A DNA stretch of 64,000 nucleotides, taken from the NCBI GenBank assembly GCA_964414145.1, contig CAYPVH010000001.1, positions 82,816 through 146,815 on the forward strand. Reading direction: 5' to 3'. The notes under the pieces were generated by a model. It made no database searches, was not told where the DNA came from, and saw only the letters and a list, made by a program, of their open reading frames with translations. Positions 22,734 through 38,976 of the stretch are shown here, one piece after another (position 1 is the stretch's first letter; each line of letters begins with the position of its first letter). This stretch comes from an uncultured Gammaproteobacteria bacterium. GTDB lineage: Bacteria > Patescibacteriota > Microgenomatia > UBA1406. A program made the translations under genes and the position numbers.

Positions 22734-23003
22734 CTATTTTTCCCAGGGTTTTCTTTTAAAATAACTTTTTAAAATCTTCTCAAGTTCTTTCTTGCCATTT
22801 CCGCCTTTTAAGTATACCTCTCTTCTTTTTGCATCTTGTTCAATAATAAATGCTTCATAATATATTAAATTAAAAGGAAGTCTATATTTGGTGGCTTTCA
22901 CAAACCCACCTTTATGTGCTTTTATTCTATTTCTAAGGTTGGGGGAATATCCTGTATACAACTTGCCATCTTTTTCACTATGGAGCACATAAATATAAAA
23001 CAT
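22734..23003 (-). CDS. small free-standing GIY-YIG nuclease-domain protein
   Basis: MFYIYVLHSEKDGKLYTGYSPNLRNRIKAHK, giving the GIY (YIY)...YTG signature plus R and E residues. 89 aa, catalytic domain only. Confidence 0.85.
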   Translation of the reverse strand: MFYIYVLHSEKDGKLYTGYSPNLRNRIKAHKGGFVKATKYRLPFNLIYYEAFIIEQDAKRREVYLKGGNGKKELEKILKSYFKRKPWEK

Positions 23004-23069
23004 TGAATAAATTATATGAATACAAAATGTGTTTGTCTGTCGACTAAAATCTACTTTTTCTTAAAAAAA

Positions 23070-23213
23070 CACGCTCACTGTGCGTGGGTGAATTATTTGC
23101 CTGCTCCCACGCTGAGCGTGGGTCTAAAAAGAGGCTGCTCCCACGCTGAGCGTGGGTCTAAAAAGAGGCTGCTCCCACGCTGAGCGTGGGATGAGCAGCG
23201 CTGAGCGCTGCTC
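23070..23213. repeat. tandem GC-rich palindromic repeat array (five hairpins, 34-bp unit, core CGCTGAGCG)
   Basis: The unit CTGCTCCCACGCTGAGCGTGGGTCTAAAAAGAGG occurs at 23101-23134 and 23135-23168, with a partial third copy to 23190. Degenerate hairpins sit at 23070-23086 and 23193-23213. Confidence 0.8.
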
Positions 23214-29871: not shown

Positions 29872-30161
29872 AAGCAACTATAAACGAAGTTCAAATAACT
29901 CCAGTTAAAGCAAACGAAGGACTCGTGGGTTTTGCCAGCTTCGTTTATAACAACAGCTTTTATTTTGGGTCAATCGGTATCTACACGCGACCACAAGGAG
30001 GGTATCGATTGACCTATCCCACTCGTAAGAGTACGAATGGCAATTTTAATATATTTCACCCAATTAACCGAGAAGTGGCAGAAGAAATCGAAAGAGTAAT
30101 TATTTCCAAGTTTGAAGATGTAACGAAAATGTATGTTGGACACAATAGTTTTAACCCTTAA
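29868..30161 (+). CDS. SpoVG-like protein
   Basis: ITPVKANEGLVGFASFVYNNSFYFGSIGIY...YRLTYPTRKS...FHPINREVAEEI parallels the SpoVG sequence pattern. Confidence 0.7.
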   Translation: MKATINEVQITPVKANEGLVGFASFVYNNSFYFGSIGIYTRPQGGYRLTYPTRKSTNGNFNIFHPINREVAEEIERVIISKFEDVTKMYVGHNSFNP

Positions 30162-31302
30162 ATCAGGTATGTTTACGATACTTGACCACGACAAATTTAG
30201 TCCATCAACCAAAGGGCTTTATGACCCTTCTGGTTACTATCGCTTGGGTGGTAGGTCTAACATAACTTGTAAGCAAAACCCGACCCCAAATGAGCTTAAA
30301 AACGGAATTTACAAACCAAGACTGACAGTTACCAAAAGAATGAACCGAGCGGGTAATTTTGAGATACCATTAAAAATTGAGTTTTCTGTTCCAAAACTAC
30401 TCTACGGCAATAACTTTGACGAGCTAACTGACGCTGATTTTCCCGCAGTCATCCAAAAACTTAAAATCGTCTTAAAAGAAATGGGTGTTAGAGTATTTGA
30501 GCAATTTCTAATCAATGCTCCCGTCTCATCGGTCCACTACTCCAAAAACATCGCCCTGACCGATTACACAACGCCCTATACCTACCTATCCCAGCTAACC
30601 AAGCTCAACATCAATAAGCGACTGGACACCAACAGAACAGACTTTAGGAACGAGGGGCACAGCTTCAAGTATCGGGCAAACTCGTTTGAGGTAGTTTTTT
30701 ATGACAAAATCAAAGACTTAGAGCAAGCTAAGGTTAGCGAGAAACGGGCTGAAGAAGAAGATAATGCCTTACAGCTTAATTTATTTGATGTGCTGACCAA
30801 GCAGAAACCGCTTGAGGTGTTGCGAGTTGAGATAAGACTAAATAGACGACAAAAAATCAACCAAATCCTCAAGAAAATAGGCAAGGAAGTAGAACCAACT
30901 TTTACAAACATATTTAGCCAAGACACAGCCAAAAAGGTCTTGCTTCACTACATCAGCGAAATTGAGGAAGCATACCCGCCTTTACTGGCATATCAATACG
31001 ACAGTCCCAAAAAGTTTTTTTCTTGCTTTTTAACTGCAAATCCTAAAATCAAGCTAACGCCTATCTTGAAAATGCTGGGATTGAGAGCATTGCTTGAGGA
31101 AATTGGCATAAGAGAGTTTAGGGAAATGACCAAGCGATACGGCAATTCTACTTGGTATAGTTTGAATAAGGAAATGAAAGAGCTGGGTAAGACTGATGAG
31201 GTTAGCGTGTTCTCACTTCTTAGAAAGCAAATAACCGAGTTTGAGCCATTAAAACTACTTGCAATTCAAGACCAGATGTTAAATAATGATAAATATAACT
31301 AA
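30133..31302 (+). CDS. rolling-circle replication initiator, filamentous-phage gene II/X (Phage_CRI)-like
   Basis: The N-terminus MLDTIVLTLKSG and the block LKIEFSVPKLLYGNNFDELTD parallel M13 gpII MIDMLVLRLPF and VEIKASPAKVLQGHNVFGTTD, as recalled. Confidence 0.65.
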   Translation: MLDTIVLTLKSGMFTILDHDKFSPSTKGLYDPSGYYRLGGRSNITCKQNPTPNELKNGIYKPRLTVTKRMNRAGNFEIPLKIEFSVPKLLYGNNFDELTDADFPAVIQKLKIVLKEMGVRVFEQFLINAPVSSVHYSKNIALTDYTTPYTYLSQLTKLNINKRLDTNRTDFRNEGHSFKYRANSFEVVFYDKIKDLEQAKVSEKRAEEEDNALQLNLFDVLTKQKPLEVLRVEIRLNRRQKINQILKKIGKEVEPTFTNIFSQDTAKKVLLHYISEIEEAYPPLLAYQYDSPKKFFSCFLTANPKIKLTPILKMLGLRALLEEIGIREFREMTKRYGNSTWYSLNKEMKELGKTDEVSVFSLLRKQITEFEPLKLLAIQDQMLNNDKYN

Positions 31303-31480
31303 TATGAAACAAGACCAGTATTACTCGATTGAAGAAGTTGCCAAAACCCTAAAAGTTGCCTATTTGACCGTGTATCGTTGGGTAAGAGCTAACCGCCTAA
31401 CTGCATACAAAGCGGGCAAACAATACAGAATAAGCAAGGATAATTTATCTCAGTTCTTAAAGAAATATGAAGCAAGATAG
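31286..31480 (+). CDS. excisionase-family HTH DNA-binding protein
   Basis: YYSIEEVAKTLKVAYLTVYRWVRANRLTAYKAGKQYRISKDNLSQFL. Confidence 0.75.
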   Translation: MINITNMKQDQYYSIEEVAKTLKVAYLTVYRWVRANRLTAYKAGKQYRISKDNLSQFLKKYEAR

Positions 31481-33416
31481 TCTTTATGAAAATAACAAAG
31501 CAGATTTGCTCGACATCTTTGGAGCGAGTGAGTTGTTGGGTGTATCTACTGCTACCGTAAGGAATTGGATTAAAACAGGTCAGCTTGCTTACTCCCCTAA
31601 TGAAAGAGGAAAACTGTTGGATAAAAAACAAATTGAACAACTTAAAACCGACATTCAGAACGGAAAAACTGAACGACTAAATAATCGAGCAAATAAAAGA
31701 AATTCAAAATCTACCTTCATCCCGATTGAACAATTAAGCCATAAAGACAAACTGCCACTTTTACAGTCATATATCAAACAGATAAATAAACACCAAATAT
31801 CGCTTCAAACCGCCCTGCTCATTCACAGCCTTTCGGTATTAAAAAAAGCCAAACTAGCGACTTTCGATGAACCTGTTTCAACCCTAAATGAAGTCAAATT
31901 TAAGAACAAAAATATAGAGAAGGTAATACTTGAATGGCAAGAAAAAATAGGAAGGATAAATCTATCTAACCTTCAAGAATTGTTAAACATAGAAGATGTA
32001 TTCAGCTCTGATAGCCTTGGTGTTTTATATCAATCCTTGCTTGATGAGGGCAAAAAGTCCCAAGGCGGTTCTTATTACACCCCCAAAACACTAATTGATG
32101 ATGTTGTTAAAGATTTATCTAGCCAGATAAAGAAAGGCTCAAAGGTTCTCGACCCTTGTTGTGGAACAGGACAGTTTCTGGTTGCTTTTTCAGAACATAT
32201 CTCCAACCCATTACTTTTATGGGGTTACGATATTGACCCGATAGCAGTACAAATTGCAAAAATAAATCTTGTTACAAGCTATCCAGAAATTGATTTTTAT
32301 CCGAATATATTCGTGGCAAACAGCCTCAGAGAAAACCCTGATGGTAAATTTGACATTATTGCAACAAATCCACCTTGGGGTTATCACTTTTCAATAGAGG
32401 AAAGCGAAATTTTGAGAAAGGCTTATCCAAATATCATTTCGAACGAGGCTTTTTCATACTTTTTAGTAAGAGGGACAAGTCTATTAAATGATAACGGTTC
32501 ACTTTGTTATGTGCTACCAGAGGCAATTACAAAGATAAAACAGCATCGAGATGTTAGAGGTTTTTTGTTAAGTGGTAGTGCTATTAAAAGCATTAAGCAT
32601 TTAGGAAATGTTTTTAGCAAAGTGTTATCACCCGTAATAACATTGACCGTCCAAAAAACAAATGGTCTTCAGAACGAAATTGAGGTTACACAAAAAGATG
32701 GACTAATGTCCAAAATCAAGCAAAGCAGATTTTTAAGCAACTCTGACTACACATTTGATACAAGTATTACCGAAAAAGACGAACTGTTAATAGCAAAAAT
32801 TTACAAAAATTGTTTTACAACATTAAAAGATAATGCAGATTGGGCATTGGGTATCGTTACAGGCAATAATAGTAAGTTCATTTCGACAACCAAAACAGAC
32901 AATAACGAGAAGGTGCTGAAAGGTGCAGACATACAAAAATATACTTTTAATCCTGCTACTTCGTTTGTCAAATTTACACCTGACGAATTTCAACAAGTCG
33001 CCCCTGTATGGAAATATCGAGCTAAAGAAAAACTAATTTATAAATTCATTTCAGGTGAGCTCGCCTTTGCATATGACGACAAACAAACATTAACTCTCAA
33101 TAGTGCAAATATACTCATTCCGAAAATTCCAGAAATCCCTACAAAAGTTGTGTTAGTTTTTCTCAACTCAAATATCTTTCAATACTTGTGGAAAAAGAAA
33201 TTTAATACGGTCAAAGTATTAAGAGGCGACCTTGAACTTTTACCCTTCCCACGAATTGATGATAAAACTCTTGCAGAAATCGAAAAAGATGTAGATAGTT
33301 TGTTATCTGGTATTGAAAGAGATAAACTCGAAGATGAACTAAATGAGTTCGTTTTTGATGCGTTTGGTTTAACATTAGATGAAAAACAATATATTAAAAA
33401 TTTTATAAGAAAATAA
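31467..33416 (+). CDS. N6-adenine DNA methyltransferase (Eco57I/TaqI-like, gamma class) with N-terminal HTH
   Basis: GGSYYTP, VLDPCCGTGQFLV (motif I), IIATNPPWG (motif IV NPPW). TaqI_C-like segment ALGIVTGNNSKF. N-terminal HTH LLGVSTATVRNWIKTGQL. Confidence 0.9.
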   Translation: MKQDSLYENNKADLLDIFGASELLGVSTATVRNWIKTGQLAYSPNERGKLLDKKQIEQLKTDIQNGKTERLNNRANKRNSKSTFIPIEQLSHKDKLPLLQSYIKQINKHQISLQTALLIHSLSVLKKAKLATFDEPVSTLNEVKFKNKNIEKVILEWQEKIGRINLSNLQELLNIEDVFSSDSLGVLYQSLLDEGKKSQGGSYYTPKTLIDDVVKDLSSQIKKGSKVLDPCCGTGQFLVAFSEHISNPLLLWGYDIDPIAVQIAKINLVTSYPEIDFYPNIFVANSLRENPDGKFDIIATNPPWGYHFSIEESEILRKAYPNIISNEAFSYFLVRGTSLLNDNGSLCYVLPEAITKIKQHRDVRGFLLSGSAIKSIKHLGNVFSKVLSPVITLTVQKTNGLQNEIEVTQKDGLMSKIKQSRFLSNSDYTFDTSITEKDELLIAKIYKNCFTTLKDNADWALGIVTGNNSKFISTTKTDNNEKVLKGADIQKYTFNPATSFVKFTPDEFQQVAPVWKYRAKEKLIYKFISGELAFAYDDKQTLTLNSANILIPKIPEIPTKVVLVFLNSNIFQYLWKKKFNTVKVLRGDLELLPFPRIDDKTLAEIEKDVDSLLSGIERDKLEDELNEFVFDAFGLTLDEKQYIKNFIRK

Positions 33417-33418
33417 TT

Positions 33419-34165
33419 ATGCAATCACTAAAGCACCAATTAGACAGCTTAATCTCTCAACTATCAAAAGAGGATGAAGCAGTTTTGAGGCAAAAACTGG
33501 ATAACTTAATGTCTGTATATCCTTTTAACGAGTATGAATTTATCATTTCTACGCTCTTAGGATTAAAAAAACTTAACCTTGATGATTATTACTTAATGAG
33601 AGATGAGTATATTGCAAGAAATATGTATCTTCATATCTTCGAGATAAGTGCTCCGAGAGGTTTTGGGGAATTATGGGCTCAAGGGCATTTGAAGGAGTTA
33701 GTACCTGACTTGGTCAAACCAACAAAAAAAATCGACCCTAACTATGCTGGGCAATATGACTTTATGTTAAATGTAGATGATAGCAAGTTCGTTACAATCG
33801 AAGTAAAAGCATCAAGAGCTGTAGATTTTAATAGCCACGAACCCTTATACATAAAAGCTCTATCAAAAGATGAAGATATGCCTTTTGATATGAACTTTCA
33901 ACAAGTTAAGCCCAAATGTTGCGATGTTTTTGTATGGATGGGCGTTTGGAGAGATGTTATTAGATATTGGGTCTTTTCTTCGAATGAGGTAGCGTCAAAC
34001 AAATACTATTCAACAGGGCAACACAGGGGTAATGTTGGAGAGGGACAACTGCATTTCAACAGAGAAAATATAGGCGAATTTGCAAGTTATGAGGCAAAAT
34101 CCGACAGCTTAAAGCAAGCTATTCTTGACGCATACCTAAGACAAATTGCCCCAATTAAGAAATGA
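33419..34165 (+). CDS. candidate cognate restriction endonuclease (PD-(D/E)xK-like)
   Basis: YDFML...FVTIEVKASR fits D...E-x-K. It starts 2 nt after the MTase stop. Confidence 0.5.
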   Translation: MQSLKHQLDSLISQLSKEDEAVLRQKLDNLMSVYPFNEYEFIISTLLGLKKLNLDDYYLMRDEYIARNMYLHIFEISAPRGFGELWAQGHLKELVPDLVKPTKKIDPNYAGQYDFMLNVDDSKFVTIEVKASRAVDFNSHEPLYIKALSKDEDMPFDMNFQQVKPKCCDVFVWMGVWRDVIRYWVFSSNEVASNKYYSTGQHRGNVGEGQLHFNRENIGEFASYEAKSDSLKQAILDAYLRQIAPIKK

Positions 34166-34168
34166 GCT

Positions 34169-35683
34169 ATGAAAGCAGTCATAATTGCACGAGTATCAAC
34201 AGAAGAACAAAAAGACGCAGGAAATTCCCTGCCAGCTCAAATAGTTCGCCTTGAAACTTATTGCGAAAGAAAAGGCTTTGAAGTTATCAAGAAATTCAGC
34301 TTTGACGAGAGTGCATATAAAAACAACCGAGAAGAATTTGACAGTATCTTGGACTACATAATCGGGCTAAAAGAGACTATAGCCGTTTGTTTTGACAAAG
34401 TAGACAGGTTATCAAGAAATGTTTTTGATATGCGGGTTGCCACTCTTTACGAGAAAGCACTTAAAGACGAGGTTGAGTTACATTTTCCCTCAGACGGACA
34501 GGTTATCAACAGTAAAATCTCGGCAGTTGAGAAGTTTCAGTTTGGTATTAGCTTAGGACTGGCTAAATACTTCTCAGACGCCATTAGCGACAATGTTAAA
34601 CGGGCACAGGAACAAATGGTTAGAAGCGGTATATTCCCTGGCAAAGCTCCTTACGGCTATCGCAACATAGATAAAGAGGACGGCAACAAATGGATTGAAA
34701 TTGACCCAATAAAAGCTCAGGTTGTAGAAAAAATGTATGAGTGGTATTCAATAGGTAGTTATTCAATGAACGAGATAAGAGCCGAGCTTAAAAAGGTGTT
34801 TAATGTTGATTTCTCAAAGGGTTATATTGACGCAATTTTGAAAAATCCCTTTTACTGCGGGACAATGGTTTACAACGAAAAAGAATATCCTCACTATTAC
34901 GACAGGGTAATTACCCAAGAGCTTTTTGACAAAGTCCAAGAAATTAAAGCGGGACACCATAAAAAGCACTTCAAATATGCTGGTTTACCCTTCTTATACC
35001 GAGGTCTAATCAGATGTGCCGATTGTGGTTGCCTGATAACCCCTGAAAGGAAAACCAAGAAAAGCGGTAAGACTTATCATTACTACCACTGCACCCAATA
35101 CAACGGCAAGCACGGGGCAGAGTGGCTGACAGAGGACGACCTGACCAAACAGTTCTCGGCAGTCTTTGACAAGCTACAAATGCCACAAGAAGCCGTAGAC
35201 GATATTGTTGAAGCACTACAGACTAACCATAAGCACAAATCAGACTTTTACCACGACTTGCTAAATCGCTATCAGACTGAACACCAAAAGTATGAGACAG
35301 GCATTGAGAAAGCCTATGACGACTACCTGCTCGGTAGTATTACTAAGGACAAGTATGAGGAAAAACGAAAAGAGTATCGGGCAAATCAGAAAGCAATAAC
35401 CAAGAAAATTGAGAAACTACAATTTGCCGATGAGGAATACTATATAACCTCAGAATACCTGCTAAAACTGGCTTCTAACGCAGGAAAATTGTTTGAAAGT
35501 TCTGAAGCCCACGAAAAACGGCTACTTTTGAAGATGGCACTTCAGAACTTGGAGTTGAATGGCAAAACAGCCCGATATGACTGGATAAAACCCTTTGACA
35601 AGATAGCTTTTTACGCCTCTCGTCAAGCTTGGCTCCCCCGCCTGGACTCGAACCAGGAACCTACCGATTACATTTATCTCTAG
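34169..35683 (+). CDS. large serine recombinase (integrase)
   Basis: N-terminal resolvase domain VIIARVSTEEQ...DRLSR. Recombinase domain and zinc ribbon CADCGC...YHYYHC. Coiled-coil C-terminus. The last 18 codons are antisense to the tRNA 3' exon. Confidence 0.9.
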   Translation: MKAVIIARVSTEEQKDAGNSLPAQIVRLETYCERKGFEVIKKFSFDESAYKNNREEFDSILDYIIGLKETIAVCFDKVDRLSRNVFDMRVATLYEKALKDEVELHFPSDGQVINSKISAVEKFQFGISLGLAKYFSDAISDNVKRAQEQMVRSGIFPGKAPYGYRNIDKEDGNKWIEIDPIKAQVVEKMYEWYSIGSYSMNEIRAELKKVFNVDFSKGYIDAILKNPFYCGTMVYNEKEYPHYYDRVITQELFDKVQEIKAGHHKKHFKYAGLPFLYRGLIRCADCGCLITPERKTKKSGKTYHYYHCTQYNGKHGAEWLTEDDLTKQFSAVFDKLQMPQEAVDDIVEALQTNHKHKSDFYHDLLNRYQTEHQKYETGIEKAYDDYLLGSITKDKYEEKRKEYRANQKAITKKIEKLQFADEEYYITSEYLLKLASNAGKLFESSEAHEKRLLLKMALQNLELNGKTARYDWIKPFDKIAFYASRQAWLPRLDSNQEPTDYIYL

Positions 35684-35950
35684 ATTTCTCTAAAGCATGG
35701 ACTATCTCATCACCCACATTGCTGTGGGGTAGGGCGCTCGTGGAGAGGTTATTGGTTGAACTCCTCACTCTCTAGTCTCTGCACCTTCTTGGCTACTTCT
35801 ATGTTCTTTCACCAAACTTGGCTCAGGATTACCATATTCCATAAAAGGAACTTAGGCTTCCCTGAATTCACCCTATTTTTCCTTGAGTGTTACCACTCAA
35901 GGCTGCAATCTTTGTTACAGTCGGTTGCTCTACCATTGAGCTACAGGGGA
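35630..35950 (-). tRNA. tRNA-Asn(GUU), interrupted by a group I intron; exons 35950-35917 and 35670-35630
   Basis: The joined exons give a 75-nt cloverleaf. Acceptor stem UCCCCUG/CGGGGGA, D stem GCUC/GAGC, anticodon stem ACCGA/UCGGU, loop CUGUUAA. T arm CCUGG-UUCGAGU-CCAGG, G73, encoded CCA. Confidence 0.85.
35671..35916 (-). ncRNA. group I (IC3-like) self-splicing intron, ORF-less, 246 nt
   Basis: The 5' exon ends in U and the intron ends in G. Guide sequence GAUUGCAG pairs with both exons. Three GNRA-capped hairpins are present. Core strings are GCCUAAG, CCUGAGCCAAG and AAGGUGCAGAGACUAGA. Confidence 0.8.
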
Positions 35951-35952
35951 AA

Positions 35953-35970
35953 TTCCGCCGGTAGGCGGAT
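35953..35970. repeat. left arm of perfect 18-bp inverted repeat (TTCCGCCGGTAGGCGGAT), itself a hairpin
   Basis: Exact reverse complement of 36252-36269. It lies 2 nt from the tRNA 5' end and 1 nt from the GIY-YIG stop codon. Confidence 0.9.
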
Positions 35971-35971
35971 T

Positions 35972-36232
35972 TTAAACGCCTACTGACTTAATCAATCTTT
36001 TAATGAACTGCCTTCCTTGATAGCTTTTCAATTTCTTTTCTCTTTCTACTGCTCTATATCTTGAGATAAGCTTTTCTTTAAAAATTAACTGCCATTCACC
36101 GTCAAATCTCGCAGTATAACTTCTTTTTAAAACTCTGCTATTGTGTTCTTTTACCCTCTTAATCAAGCTATCAGTCTGACCAATATATATTTTGTTATAC
36201 TTTTTGTTATATAAAGCATATACCCAAAACAT
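35972..36232 (-). CDS. small free-standing GIY-YIG nuclease-domain protein
   Basis: MFWVYALYNKKYNKIYIGQTDSLIKRVKEHN, giving a GIY-like VYALY...YIG signature. 86 aa. Confidence 0.85.
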   Translation of the reverse strand: MFWVYALYNKKYNKIYIGQTDSLIKRVKEHNSRVLKRSYTARFDGEWQLIFKEKLISRYRAVEREKKLKSYQGRQFIKRLIKSVGV

Positions 36233-36251
36233 AGTACAATTATACTAGATC

Positions 36252-36269
36252 ATCCGCCTACCGGCGGAA
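36252..36269. repeat. right arm of perfect 18-bp inverted repeat (ATCCGCCTACCGGCGGAA)
   Basis: Exact reverse complement of 35953-35970. It lies 19 nt upstream of the GIY-YIG start. Confidence 0.9.
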
Positions 36270-36393
36270 AAGAGCTATGCGAACTTAAGTATATTACCAT
36301 AAAAAGGAGAGAGTTTGAATATGAAGTAACCATTAAAGCTTCTGTTTATTAATGTGGTTGAAATATTACTTATAATATCTTATAATATTTGCT

Positions 36394-37464
36394 ATGGTTA
36401 CTATTGAATCGATGCTCAAGGGGCGTTTAGGTTATGCTCCTACTCCTATGGAGCCCCCTCCTTCTGAAACTAAAGACAATGTCGTTCAATTTTCATTAAC
36501 AGAAGGCTGCAATCACAATTCCTGCACCTACTGCACTATGTATAAAGATGGTCGAGTAGTTTATAGCGTAAAATCAGAGCAAGAATATTATGACCATGTA
36601 AGGCAGGTTCTAGCCTATCTAAGAAGATATCCTAGTGCCTTAAATCAAATCGATAGAATTTTTATTGGGGCAGGCAACGCTCTCAGTGCCGATTTCGATA
36701 CTTTGTTTTTTGCATCACAATACTCTTTACAAGCTGTACTACAAGCAACTGGAAGGCTACCAAGAAGGGTAGCTGTTTATGGTAATACAAAAGATATTCT
36801 AAAACAAGGAGAAGAAAATCTGCACATGCTATATTGTGGTGGCACTTGTGGCAACTGTTCTATACAACGACTGGGTGGAAGACGTGGTTTAGAAGTAGTT
36901 TACTGGGGTCTTGAAAGCGGAAGCGATAAGGTTTTGAAAATAGCAGGTAAGGGCTATGATAGTAATGAGGCATATAGAGCAGGCAAAATTCTTGATTATT
37001 CTGGAATACGAGCATCCGTAATGGTCATGCCAGGTTTAGGTGGTATTACTCATTCATACGATCACGAAGTAGACACGGCAAATTTACTAAACTACATACG
37101 GCCAGAATGGATAACCTTTATGGCTCTAACCATTTGTAATGGTACTCCATATGCCAGATGGATAGAAAGAGAAGAAGCAGGAAACAGAAATAGGCGATTA
37201 ACACCAGCAGAAATTGCAGAGCAAACAGCCAGAATTATCGAAAGATTAGATTTCTCCACCAGTATTGGAGTTCATGGGCAAGATATCCACCCAACATTAG
37301 ATGGAAACCCTGTTCCTATTGGGGTATGTCAGATAGAAGATCGATTTGATGCGCAAGATGTTGCCACTCAAATTAGAGCAGGAATCCAAGGCTTAGAAGA
37401 CAGAAGAACAAGAAGGTTCCAAATACCATTTAGTTTTACACCATTAAGACGATCTAGAAGCTAA
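36394..37464 (+). CDS. radical SAM-like enzyme with non-canonical CX4CX2C cluster motif
   Basis: EGCNHNSCTYCTMY, FIGAGNA and GLESGSDKVL resemble radical SAM core motifs. TATAAT at 36381-36386 sits 7 nt before the ATG. Confidence 0.65.
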   Translation: MVTIESMLKGRLGYAPTPMEPPPSETKDNVVQFSLTEGCNHNSCTYCTMYKDGRVVYSVKSEQEYYDHVRQVLAYLRRYPSALNQIDRIFIGAGNALSADFDTLFFASQYSLQAVLQATGRLPRRVAVYGNTKDILKQGEENLHMLYCGGTCGNCSIQRLGGRRGLEVVYWGLESGSDKVLKIAGKGYDSNEAYRAGKILDYSGIRASVMVMPGLGGITHSYDHEVDTANLLNYIRPEWITFMALTICNGTPYARWIEREEAGNRNRRLTPAEIAEQTARIIERLDFSTSIGVHGQDIHPTLDGNPVPIGVCQIEDRFDAQDVATQIRAGIQGLEDRRTRRFQIPFSFTPLRRSRS

Positions 37465-37907: not shown

Positions 37908-38411
37908 ATGGATTTCTCAAAAGTAACTCATCCGAAAGCAAAGTTCTTTTTACAGAGTTTCTTTGCCAATAGAGAGATAAACAGAGAGTTTTATCAACTT
38001 GTTCCCGAGGAAAGCTTCGACTTTCGCATGATAAACACCCCAGATCGCAAATCCGACTCTCCCAAAGAAAGCTTAGCTCACCAAATCAATGTGCAATATA
38101 CCTATATGCAGGCAATAGATAAAGGGAAATTAAGCTTTGGTGCCTACTCCAACCAAAAGCTAAAAGTCCAAACAAAGGCAGAACTGCTCACCGAGCTCAA
38201 AAAAGCCGACCAAGAGCTTATACAAATACTTTCCAATAAAGAGAACTGCAATAAAAAAATAAAAGTTCCCTGGAGCAAGGAGCCAATTTTTGCCGTAGAT
38301 ATGCTTTGGGCACTCGATCAACACGAGGTGCTGCATACCGGCTGGAACTTGGCCATTATGGACCACTTGGGTATTGAGCGCTTCCCCTCGCTCAAGAAAA
38401 TGTGGGGTTAA
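37908..38411 (+). CDS. DinB-family (four-helix-bundle) protein
   Basis: H...HEVLHTGWNL pattern and matching size. Start set at ATG 37908, 7 nt after TAAAAT. Confidence 0.5.
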   Translation: MDFSKVTHPKAKFFLQSFFANREINREFYQLVPEESFDFRMINTPDRKSDSPKESLAHQINVQYTYMQAIDKGKLSFGAYSNQKLKVQTKAELLTELKKADQELIQILSNKENCNKKIKVPWSKEPIFAVDMLWALDQHEVLHTGWNLAIMDHLGIERFPSLKKMWG

Positions 38412-38445
38412 ATATAGAAATATAAACAATTGCTATAATTTCTAT

Positions 38446-38976
38446 ATGCAAGAGACCGAACAAGAAAGGCAACCTCAACATACAGCTCCTGGCCCAGTTC
38501 CCGAAGCCGTTACACCAGTACCTGGTTCTCAAGATACTCCTGCTGGAGCTGCTACTCCTGTTCCTGGAGCAATTACACCAGTACCCGGCTCTCAAGAGCC
38601 TGTACCTGGCTCTCAAGATACTCCTGAAGGCGCCAAAGCTCCAGAATCTCAACAGCAGCCTTTTACCGACATCCCTTTGGGTGAAGCCGGTGCTCTTTAT
38701 AAAGAATACATAAATAGTCCACAACCAGAGTATGAGGCAGAATTGTTTGGCAACCTTGTCGACTCACTGCAAAGAGAGGCCGATCAACACGGCCCTGCAA
38801 GAGATTTATGGTTCAACTACCAACTAGTTAGAGCTTATCTCCGTACCAGACAATGGGAACGAGCACAAGAGGCTATAGACGACGCCCTGCTTCTTACAGA
38901 AAATATCGGAAAAGGGGAGGGAGTTTTCTTAGAGCTTCAGAACCAAATTTTAGAAATAAGCAAAGAAGATAAATAA
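38446..38976 (+). CDS. hypothetical protein with Pro-rich repeat region, paralog of 11441-11827
   Basis: PVPGSQ(D/E) repeats followed by RDLWFNYQLVRAYLRTRQWERAQEAIDDALLLTENIGKGE. Start set at ATG 38446, 6 nt after TGCTATAAT. Confidence 0.6.
   Translation: MQETEQERQPQHTAPGPVPEAVTPVPGSQDTPAGAATPVPGAITPVPGSQEPVPGSQDTPEGAKAPESQQQPFTDIPLGEAGALYKEYINSPQPEYEAELFGNLVDSLQREADQHGPARDLWFNYQLVRAYLRTRQWERAQEAIDDALLLTENIGKGEGVFLELQNQILEISKEDK
38512..38627 (+). repeat. in-frame tandem repeats encoding TPVPGSQD/E units
   Basis: ACACCAGTACC(T/C)GG(T/C)TCTCAAGA recurs at 38512 and 38575, with a third copy, CCTGTACCTGGCTCTCAAGATACTCCTG, at 38599. Confidence 0.7.

Follow-up and report, generated by a model that had tools for sequence, protein, structure and literature searches.

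How does a tRNA gene come to be hidden in plain sight, and what is it that hides it? At its default settings, ARAGORN reports zero tRNAs of any kind in the 64-kb stretch of DNA considered here (the whole of which we call the window), and yet, when introns are allowed, the same program returns tRNA-Asn(gtt) i(35,246), a tRNA-Asn gene interrupted within its own anticodon. In this paper, we ask what the interrupting sequence is, whether it belongs to a kind already described, how it would work and what the genes are that press against the two ends of its host.

Our answer, drawn from sequence and held with high confidence, is that it is very probably a group I intron of the IA type, functional, self-splicing and without an ORF, which belongs to the class named "Asn.4Ug" and is lodged in the only tRNA-Asn(GUU) of the window; the genome is probably that of a patescibacterium. 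The value of such an intron is practical rather than conceptual. Default finders miss the tRNA-Asn, and such a genome would therefore be scored as being without an essential tRNA; the published remedy (ARAGORN with introns allowed, followed by a check of the boundaries) succeeds at this locus.

A tRNA-Asn gene and the intron inside it

Read on the minus strand, the locus runs exon, intron, exon (Table 1), with the intron set between anticodon positions 35 and 36, and the letters from 35630 to 35950 agree base for base with the transcription in the original prediction, which had proposed a tRNA-Asn(GUU) split at this very point by a 246-nt group I intron. ARAGORN and the Rfam match described below both bear this out. 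The joined exons make tRNA-Asn(GUU), and an ARAGORN run on the resulting 75-mer recovers the clean, canonical cloverleaf that had been described, with anticodon loop CUGUUAA, a variable loop of 5 nt, G73 and an encoded CCA. The likeness to E. coli tRNA-Asn that had been put forward also holds: the annotated tRNA-Asn genes of E. coli are 81.6% identical to the joined tRNA over its full length, and the intron-less tRNA-Asn genes in the loci that we fetched are 84-88% identical, whereas non-Asn tRNAs give only local matches of 19-50 nt. The body of the tRNA, in other words, matches tRNA-Asn genes over their full length and those of no other isotype.

Table 1. Positions in the window of the split tRNA gene, the helices assigned to its intron and the two flanking genes
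Feature	Coordinates	Strand	Remarks
Large serine recombinase	34169..35683	+	convergent with the tRNA; Pfam Resolvase, Recombinase, Zn_ribbon_recom
tRNA-Asn 3' exon	35630..35670	-	tRNA positions 36-76, encoded CCA; ARAGORN
Group I intron	35671..35916	-	246 nt, without ORF; 5' AACAAAG, 3' AAAUG; omega-G = 35671; RF00028
P9	35678..35695	-	7 bp, GAAA tetraloop; 95.4% paired, compensatory 7/7
P8	35713..35728	-	CCCACA/UGUGGG, GCAA tetraloop; compensatory changes; length variable in family
P7.1/P7.2-type hairpin	35743..35772	-	between P7 and P3'; GAGAG/CUCUC around GG/CC; loop motifs UGAGGA and CCAAUAA conserved
P7, 5' strand G-A-GACUA	35773..35779	-	one bulged A; partner UAGUCC 35699-35704
P6 (GCC/GGU) and P6a (UUUGG/CCAAG)	35783..35822	-	96-96.5% paired; compensatory 8/8
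P4-P5 domain	35823..35865	-	CCUAAG...UAUGG in P5; A-rich J4/5 and J5/4; 86-95% paired, compensatory changes
P3, 5' strand UAGGGUG	35869..35875	-	partner CGCCCUA 35730-35736; compensatory 7/7; 93% of cells paired
P2	35882..35901	-	8-9 bp, GUAA tetraloop; compensatory changes at 8/8 pairs
P1	35902..35921	-	exon (A)CUGU and intron AA with guide UUGCAG(C); U35-G wobble = 5' splice site
P10	GAUU 35907-35910 with 3'-exon AAUC 35666-35669	-	helix model
tRNA-Asn 5' exon	35917..35950	-	tRNA positions 1-35; U35 = U-1 of the 5' splice site; ARAGORN
Stand-alone GIY-YIG gene, 86 aa	35972..36232	-	PF01541, E 1.2e-11; stop 21 nt upstream of the tRNA 5' end, same strand

The only Rfam match in the window is to RF00028 (Intron_gpI), a search that the original prediction had put forward as its check; it covers model positions 1-253 of 253, at 35926-35678 on the minus strand, and scores 105.5 bits where the gathering score is 50 (E 2.4e-26). 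The intron folds to a minimum free energy of -83.1 kcal/mol, and none of 200 shuffles is as stable (z = -4.87). A full P1-P10 model with a P3/P7 pseudoknot can be built, and in it 71 of the 72 pairs of the window copy are canonical and every universally conserved core string is present; at the foot of P1, A6 stands opposite C25 as a mismatch. The G-U pair at the 5' splice site, the P10 pairing and the terminal G that had been picked out from the letters all find their places in this model, and the three GNRA-capped hairpins turn out to be P2, P8 and P9. Also as stated, the intron is ORF-less, with no same-strand ORF of at least 60 aa; we found no intron-encoded endonuclease, the one overlapping ORF being a 76-aa frame with a TTG start on the opposite strand.

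What do the relatives say about these helices? When 88 distinct sequences are aligned, 89.8% of the cells are paired and 59 of the 72 pairs show compensatory changes, counts that are biased toward the model because the alignment was fitted to our own covariance model. None of 500 shuffles matches the observed pairing and compensation, and slid controls are 35-42% paired; an independent MAFFT alignment (A1) gives 88% paired and 32 compensatory pairs. Within P1, 92.7% of the cells are paired and the U-1-G wobble is invariant (88/88 distinct homologues), and the outer pairs of P10 hold up poorly across the family (only 41% paired). The hairpin between P7 and P3', which about half of the family carries, is 75% paired in P7.1, with compensation at every pair, and 98.8% paired in P7.2. 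The GAAA loop of P9 is invariant in alignment A1. P7 itself, which gives the pseudoknot with P3 and is presumed to be the helix that binds guanosine, is 100% paired and never varies (74-79 sequences), and because it is invariant it carries no covariation evidence. The CCUAAG...UAUGG of P5 we read, tentatively, as a motif like the 11-nt receptor.

A class already described and a question of subgroup

The original prediction had wondered whether tRNA-Asn, split at 35/36, might be a new host and a new insertion site. It is neither. Williams 2020 (bioRxiv 10.1101/2020.01.27.920355) enlarged the classes of bacterial tRNA intron from 4 to 21, and the tRNA-Asn 35/36 class is the "Asn.4Ug" of that work, as cited by Nakagawa et al. 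(bioRxiv 2025, mSystems 2026, PMC13011429), who count 15 tRNA-Asn(GUU) introns at this site in 95 complete genomes of Patescibacteria, and 28 introns at 35/36 among 4,934 bacterial genomes. The sizes reported are 184-894 nt (mean 257), and they observed precise self-splicing in vitro for one tRNA-Asn and one tRNA-Asp 35/36 intron, which a change of omega-G to C blocks. The window intron is thus of an already known kind and is ordinary for its lineage. With the Patescibacteria introns of PMC13011429, it shares the host tRNA, the anticodon, the site, U-1, omega-G, the want of an ORF, a size within the range, the habit of escaping default tRNA finders, the IA-type hairpin and, probably, the phylum, and a comparison of the window copy with the fetched loci shows no categorical difference.

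Those loci are numerous. The same arrangement occurs in at least 120 metagenome loci, 8 IMG/VR loci and 4 genome loci, the last 4 coming from a search pattern that picked up the T-arms of uninterrupted, ordinary tRNA-Asn genes as well. From these loci come 75 unique introns, 178-665 nt long. A covariance model built on the window copy (R1) makes 95 matches in the fetched loci, at 38.6-258.5 bits, with the window copy itself at 258.5; a few of the weaker matches are second introns at places other than 35/36, and the nearest nonidentical relative of the intron in those loci has, by BLAST, only about 75% identity. As for the owner of the DNA, the named homologues of the MltG, GIY-YIG and recombinase proteins of the window come nearly all from Microgenomates, Levybacteria, Moranbacteria, Berkelbacteria and unclassified Patescibacteria, with one MltG homologue labelled Ignavibacteria. 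A search of about 35 window ORFs with Pfam and NCBIfam brought up no housekeeping markers. We also considered and set aside a cyanobacterial origin, the 64 kb holding 0 sites of HIP1 (GCGATCGC).

To which subgroup, then, does the intron belong? The original prediction saw a member of the IC3 lineage of the Azoarcus tRNA-Ile and cyanobacterial tRNA-Leu introns, moved to a new site, and it relied on core strings. The strings GAGCCAAG and GAAGGUG-AGAGACUAGA are probably common to the Azoarcus intron and ours. In the Azoarcus structure, P9 and P5 are braced by a tetraloop and its receptor, as they probably are in the window intron. The resemblance goes further, for the introns of Azoarcus tRNA-Ile(CAU), cyanobacterial and plastid tRNA-Leu(UAA), tRNA-fMet and tRNA-Arg(CCU) are also small, ORF-less ribozymes of the anticodon loop; bases of that loop build their P1, they have a P2 hairpin and they lack P5abc, and about one-half of the present family is without the extra hairpin. 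This resemblance (the CCUAAG...UAUGG receptor, the GAAA on P9, the P2 hairpin and the absent P5abc) is real, but it is not diagnostic. The IC3 introns sit at 33/34, 34/35 or 36/37 rather than 35/36, and between P7 and P3', where the IC3 core is minimal, the window intron has an insertion of 30 nt, a hairpin supported by covariation at the P7.1/P7.2 position that is the mark of IA. The IA introns known from bacteria and phages, such as T4 td and Twort orf142-I2, likewise have added helical structure where the chain passes from the 5' strand of P7 to the 3' strand of P3, although the phage ones are larger, lie in protein-coding genes and often carry homing-endonuclease ORFs, and ours is a single nested hairpin. 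In the phage collection, the only similarities at the DNA level are weak and partial and fall in unannotated stretches inside protein genes (terminase, for example), not in tRNA introns, which is weak evidence against IC3. With subgroup covariance models, PMC13011429 classes 25 of the 28 35/36 introns as IA, and there no tRNA intron of Patescibacteria falls in IC; in the tree of the same study, IA and IC stand apart. We judge an IC3 origin improbable, and this part of the original prediction gives way to a probable IA assignment.

Two other readings have to be faced, one about the boundaries of the intron and one about its health. If both boundaries are moved by two bases, the intron (which ends in ...UG) leaves a 7-nt loop, CUUGUAA, and the gene becomes a tRNA-Thr(UGU) split at 33/34. 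This is how ARAGORN and tFind frequently read the class: ARAGORN calls Thr(tgt) at 11 of 109 homologous loci, and PMC13011429 documents the ambiguity. At the window locus, however, the ARAGORN call is Asn, the only isotype that the body of the tRNA resembles; the shifted intron would have A, not G, as its last base and would forfeit the invariant wobble of P1, and the splice products of relatives that were sequenced in PMC13011429 show excision at 35/36. We can give the threonine reading next to no credence. Might the gene instead be a decaying pseudogene, killed by an intron that has ceased to splice? Mobile DNA flanks it on both sides, and P1 has its A6-C25 mismatch, but the core helices are all intact, the RF00028 match runs the full length of the model and the differences from relatives are compensatory. 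The locus recurs, identical, in four independent JGI metagenome assemblies; the window, 64 kb of a contig of about 285 kb, has no other tRNA, and a genome that has an intron-bearing tRNA gene seldom also has an intron-less one for the same anticodon (PMC13011429). Decay strikes us as highly improbable. A working intron of the IA type, in a tRNA-Asn, remains the reading that we prefer.

How the intron would leave its tRNA

We infer that the window intron is catalytic from the published splicing of its relatives in vitro, just as we infer its tertiary contacts and its splicing in vivo. On that footing, the route would be the standard one for group I introns. C32-U35 of the anticodon loop and the first two bases of the intron would pair with the guide UUGCAG to make P1, in which the U35-G pair would set the 5' splice site. 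The core would consist of P3-P8 and P4-P6 arranged around the P3/P7 pseudoknot, and it would probably be braced by the GAAA of P9, docked on the CCUAAG/UAUGG receptor in P5, together with the P7.1/P7.2 hairpin. An external guanosine, bound in P7, would then attack 3' of U35. P10 would then arise between the guide's GAUU and A37-C40 of the 3' exon, the intron's last base, a G, would enter the guanosine site and the exons would be ligated. The product would carry the loop CUGUUAA, and ordinary processing of its ends would complete a mature tRNA-Asn.

Neighbors at both ends of the gene

A single tRNA gene here keeps company with three kinds of selfish or mobile DNA: the intron within, a GIY-YIG gene on the 5' side and a serine-recombinase island on the 3' side. 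The GIY-YIG gene adjoins the 5' end of tRNA-Asn in the window and at all of the homologue loci that we checked, whether there is an intron or none. It belongs to a subfamily of stand-alone genes of 82-100 aa that, in Patescibacteria, keep physically to the 5' end of tRNA-Asn(GUU), and in this subfamily the stop codon of the ORF is often the TAG formed by U8-A9-G10 of the tRNA-Asn itself. Might such a gene and its tRNA-Asn move as a discrete cassette? Contigs that encode the identical GIY-YIG protein begin to differ no nearer to the ORF than about 146 nt on its upstream side. We found no description of this synteny in the literature that we searched.

Could the intron and the free-standing nuclease gene be partners in collaborative (trans) homing, in which the nuclease cuts intron-less tRNA-Asn genes, the intron shields its own allele and the two are converted together? 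The pathway is established (PMC3984707), and T4 SegB (PMC2330249) targets a cluster of tRNA genes. The gene stands free, a short distance upstream and on the strand of the tRNA. Across 136 intron-bearing tRNA-Asn loci, the matches to GIY-YIG ORFs lie on the tRNA strand without exception (32/32), and 26 of the 32 are directly adjacent; of 63 other tRNAs in those loci, 1 is near a GIY-YIG ORF, and that ORF is also beside a tRNA-Asn. Control loci from other phyla give 1 match in 858 kb, away from tRNAs. Against all of this, an upstream GIY-YIG gene is present in just 12 of the 112 intron-bearing loci with enough upstream sequence, and 6 of the 6 homologues that we checked adjoin an intron-less tRNA-Asn, for which reason we take the link to be with the tRNA and not with the intron. 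In this last respect, the window differs from the cyanophage psbA/F-CphI pair and from T4 SegB, as it does in the protein itself, which is a bare, SLX1/YhbQ-like catalytic domain without a DNA-binding domain. A search of structure databases returns marginal matches to SLX1 only (E 0.08), and an NCBIfam model of the I-TevI type gives 21 bits against a cutoff of 56. Trans homing by this pair is, in our opinion, unlikely.

A looser idea is that the GIY-YIG gene might be a selfish nuclease module aimed at tRNA-Asn, with the 35/36 intron as a protective or comobilized partner. We offer the idea as doubtful speculation. If it were true, the novelty would lie in the neighborhood of the genes and not in the intron, and such a module would help to account for tRNA-Asn as the intron hot spot of the phylum. 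A functional link between the GIY-YIG gene and this tRNA would also be relevant to the ways in which introns without an ORF survive and spread when genomes are reduced, a question that PMC13011429 leaves standing.

At the other end, a serine-recombinase island that includes restriction-modification genes adjoins the 3' end of the tRNA-Asn. Within the window, we saw no att-type duplicate of the tRNA 3' end at 3 or fewer mismatches and no convincing long direct repeats for the island, and a promoter and terminator scan of 35400-36500 gave nothing above chance, the promoter of the tRNA included. Homologues of the recombinase always terminate at the 3' end of a tRNA-Asn. In the window, the last 54 nt of the recombinase ORF lie antisense over the 3' exon and reach 13 nt into the intron, an overlap that one might be tempted to regard as a meaningful fusion. 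We rejected this notion, because the homologues stop at a TAA ahead of the tRNA: at one of the homologous loci (L260), the ORF ends at TAA just before the tRNA, the codon at that place in the window is CAA, and this accounts for the overlap.

The intron-split tRNA-Asn gene

What interrupts this tRNA gene, and is it new? By default, ARAGORN detects no tRNA anywhere in the 64-kb window; once introns are allowed, it calls a tRNA-Asn(gtt) that a 246-nt intron interrupts after position 35, and this intron-split gene is real, far beyond chance. Re-reading of the sequence shows that the original prediction transcribed 35630-35950 (minus strand) exactly, and the clean cloverleaf it claimed is borne out, the exon-joined 75-mer taking the canonical fold in ARAGORN, with acceptor UCCCCUG/CGGGGGA, anticodon loop CUGUUAA, a 5-nt variable loop, G73, and an encoded CCA. 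The stated closeness to Escherichia coli tRNA-Asn holds as well (81.6% identity across all 75 nt against annotated genes), and of the 182 tRNAs in the fetched loci, none but the tRNA-Asn genes match the joined tRNA at full length.

Rfam Intron_gpI matches 35926-35678 from end to end with 105.5 bits (gathering score, 50; E = 2.4e-26) and is the sole Rfam hit within the window. Our structural model, numbered on 264 nt (10 exon nt, the intron, and 8 exon nt), has 71 of its 72 pairs canonical in the window copy, and an unconstrained MFE fold recovers P1, P2, P3, P8, and P9 (z = -4.87). The test that the original prediction had set for its own refutation was thus run: RF00028 matched, and a P3-P7 pseudoknot could be modelled. 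Together with the tRNA call, these results show that it named the feature correctly as a group I intron splitting tRNA-Asn. We read CCUAAG...UAUGG in P5 as a predicted 11-nt GAAA-tetraloop receptor.

Features of the tRNA-Asn locus, in window coordinates; intron elements are those of the drawn model, and ^ marks a splice site
Feature	Position	Strand	Description
Mobile element	29886-35683	plus	abuts tRNA-Asn 3' end; homology with L260-L266
Large serine recombinase	34169-35683	plus	504 aa; convergent with tRNA-Asn
3' exon	35670-35630	minus	
Intron	35916-35671	minus	246 nt
5' exon	35950-35917	minus	
Stand-alone GIY-YIG gene	35972-36232	minus	86 aa; tRNA's strand; ends 21 nt upstream of tRNA
P1		minus	(A)CUGU^AA with UUGCAG(C); U35-G wobble at splice site
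P2		minus	9-bp hairpin, GUAA loop
P3		minus	UAGGGUG/CGCCCUA
P4		minus	UCAGGG/UCCUGA
P5		minus	includes CCUAAG...UAUGG
P6 and P6a		minus	present in model
P7		minus	G-A-GACUA/UAGUCC
Extra nested hairpin, P7 to P3'		minus	GAGAG/CUCUC around GG/CC
P8		minus	hairpin, GCAA loop
P9		minus	hairpin, GAAA loop
Omega-G	35671	minus	last intron base
P10		minus	GAUU/AAUC

One might instead shift the boundaries by two bases and read a tRNA-Thr(UGU) with its intron at 33/34, a known artefact of the class with introns at 35/36, between tRNA positions 35 and 36 (PMC13011429). With introns allowed, ARAGORN assigns tRNA-Thr(tgt) in 11 of 109 homologous loci (L122-L241) and Tyr, His, or Phe in a few, calls that reproduce the published two-base ambiguity; all of these loci, despite their differing isotypes, share the arrangement CUGU^..G^UAA. 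We reject the Thr(UGU) reading because the intron would then end in A and the invariant P1 wobble would be broken.

Read as tRNA-Asn, the modelled structure is consistent with the standard group I pathway, with no sign of departure. Guanosine would attack after U35 while U35 is held in P1, the guide sequence would switch from the P1 extension to P10, omega-G would dock in P7, and exon ligation would restore the loop CUGUUAA.

Relatives and published class

A search pattern made up of the D-arm, CUGU, the intron start, and the guide sequence matches at least 120 metagenome loci, 8 IMG/VR loci, and 4 genome-collection MAGs (labelled Saccharibacteria, Gammaproteobacteria, Pirellulales, and "uncultured bacterium"). 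Among the matches listed, at least 75 unique introns of 178-665 nt could be extracted, all with omega-G and with U-1, the last 5'-exon base; the nearest to the window copy is ~75% identical. In a MAFFT alignment of ten introns, pairing covers 88% of cells and compensatory changes occur at 32 pairs, and the covariance model built from it aligned 95 matches (88 distinct) among the loci listed. In the alignment of the 88, which is fitted to its own model, the paired share of cells is 89.8%, and compensatory changes are seen at 59 of 72 pairs; 0 of 500 shuffles reached the observed pairing values, and sliding partners by 1-3 columns as a control brought pairing to 35-42%. Every pair of P2, P3, P6, P6a, and P9 covaries in this alignment, P7 is invariant and 100% complementary, and the U-1-G pair is invariant.

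Second, weaker matches to the intron model (47-50 bits) lie 1.5-2.5 kb from the tRNA-Asn intron in L088 (4681-4899, plus), L156 (6075-6293, plus), and L177 (2559-2757, minus), a hint that nearby genes in these genomes carry additional group I introns. The 8 IMG/VR contigs, catalogued as viral (L242-L249, 12-257 kb), fit the intron-bearing tRNA-Asn pattern, with model matches in L242, L243, L247, and L248 (up to 193 bits in L247/L248; GC, 34%); they could carry phage-borne tRNAs or be patescibacterial DNA filed as viral.

The original prediction also proposed a new host and insertion site, and here the literature was ahead of it. Bacterial tRNA group I introns, once four classical IC3 types, were expanded to 21 classes (Williams, bioRxiv 2020), among them, as cited by Nakagawa et al. 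(PMC13011429), "Asn.4Ug." In 95 complete Patescibacteria genomes, 15 tRNA-Asn(GUU) and 3 tRNA-Asp introns were found at 35/36 (Nakagawa et al., bioRxiv 2025; mSystems 2026; PMC13011429). The same work counts 28 introns at this site across 4,934 bacterial genomes, with Patescibacteria accounting for 19, notes that standard tools miss or mis-call the genes, and demonstrates precise self-splicing at 35/36 in vitro, with omega-G-to-C as the negative control (PMC13011429). It assigns 25 of the 28 to subgroup IA, and no tRNA intron from Patescibacteria to IC (PMC13011429). The IC3 resemblance that had been noticed is real (P5 receptor, P9 GAAA loop, P2 hairpin, and small size) but not diagnostic, and the assignment is unsupported.

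The host, site, and size of the window copy all match those of the published Patescibacteria introns, as do its lack of an ORF, its IA-type extra hairpin, and its likely lineage. Named homologues of the window's MltG come from Microgenomates, Levybacteria, Moranbacteria, and Patescibacteria, plus one labelled Ignavibacteria, and those of its GIY-YIG and recombinase proteins are likewise patescibacterial. The window intron is an unexceptional member of the published class, which was described in 2020 and experimentally characterised in 2025-2026.

A GIY-YIG gene beside tRNA-Asn

The sole part that may be new is the linkage of tRNA-Asn to a GIY-YIG gene, a synteny for which we found no description in the searchable literature. 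Across the 136 intron-bearing tRNA-Asn loci listed (865 kb), all 32 GIY-YIG ORF hits lie on the tRNA's strand, 26 of them directly up- or downstream of it; among other tRNAs there, 1 of 63 has such an ORF nearby, and that ORF flanks tRNA-Asn too. Control loci from other phyla (116 loci, 858 kb, 42 intron-less tRNA-Asn genes) gave one hit, away from tRNAs. In the reverse test, from six GIY-YIG homologues (50-65% identity), 14 of 15 loci had enough flank, and in every such contig, tRNA-Asn(GUU) comes next on the same strand. All of these tRNA genes are intron-less, so the synteny involves tRNA-Asn rather than the intron.

An upstream GIY-YIG gene occurs in 12 of the 112 intron-bearing loci with sufficient upstream sequence, among loci listed. 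Collaborative homing of intron and GIY-YIG protein is possible but weakly supported, and the protein looks SLX1/YhbQ-like rather than I-TevI-like. Members of this stand-alone GIY-YIG subfamily (82-100 aa; window, L256, L257, L259, and L267-L277) always lie directly 5' of tRNA-Asn(GUU) on its strand, whether or not that gene has an intron. In the reverse-test loci, the GIY-YIG stop codon is usually the tRNA's own U8-A9-G10 (TAG), a 10-nt overlap; if RNase P cleaves at the 5' end of the tRNA, the mRNA upstream would be left without a stop codon.

A second GIY-YIG paralogue (22736-23060, minus) adjoins no tRNA; beside it, three tandem 34-nt repeats (23078-23190) each carry the palindrome CCCACGCTGAGCGTGGG, and a palindrome similar to CCCACGCTGAGCGTGGG follows tRNA-Asn in L101. 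In L259 (~2840-2960), an intact intron-less tRNA-Asn is directly followed by a second tRNA-Asn-like sequence with D-loop and T-arm regions swapped for GC-rich palindromes (CCGCC...GGCGG), which may represent a tRNA copy that has degenerated or been invaded by hairpins.

The serine-recombinase island

The recombinase, whose 90%-identity cluster has 84 members, belongs to a mobile element with a conserved backbone (SpoVG-like gene, ~390-aa gene, HTH gene, and recombinase), variable methyltransferase/restriction cargo between the backbone genes, and homology reaching left to near 29886. In the homologue loci examined (L260-L266), the recombinase always ends, convergent, at the tRNA-Asn 3' end, the abutted gene being intron-bearing in L260/L261 and intron-less in L265. 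The L260 recombinase stops at a TAA just ahead of the tRNA; in the window, that codon is CAA, so the 54-nt antisense recombinase/tRNA overlap is trivial read-through. Elsewhere in the window, a 200-aa ORF (38374-38976, plus) has proline-rich tandem repeats (TPVPGSQD-like), encoded at 38484-38618 by imperfect 51-nt and 21-nt DNA repeats.
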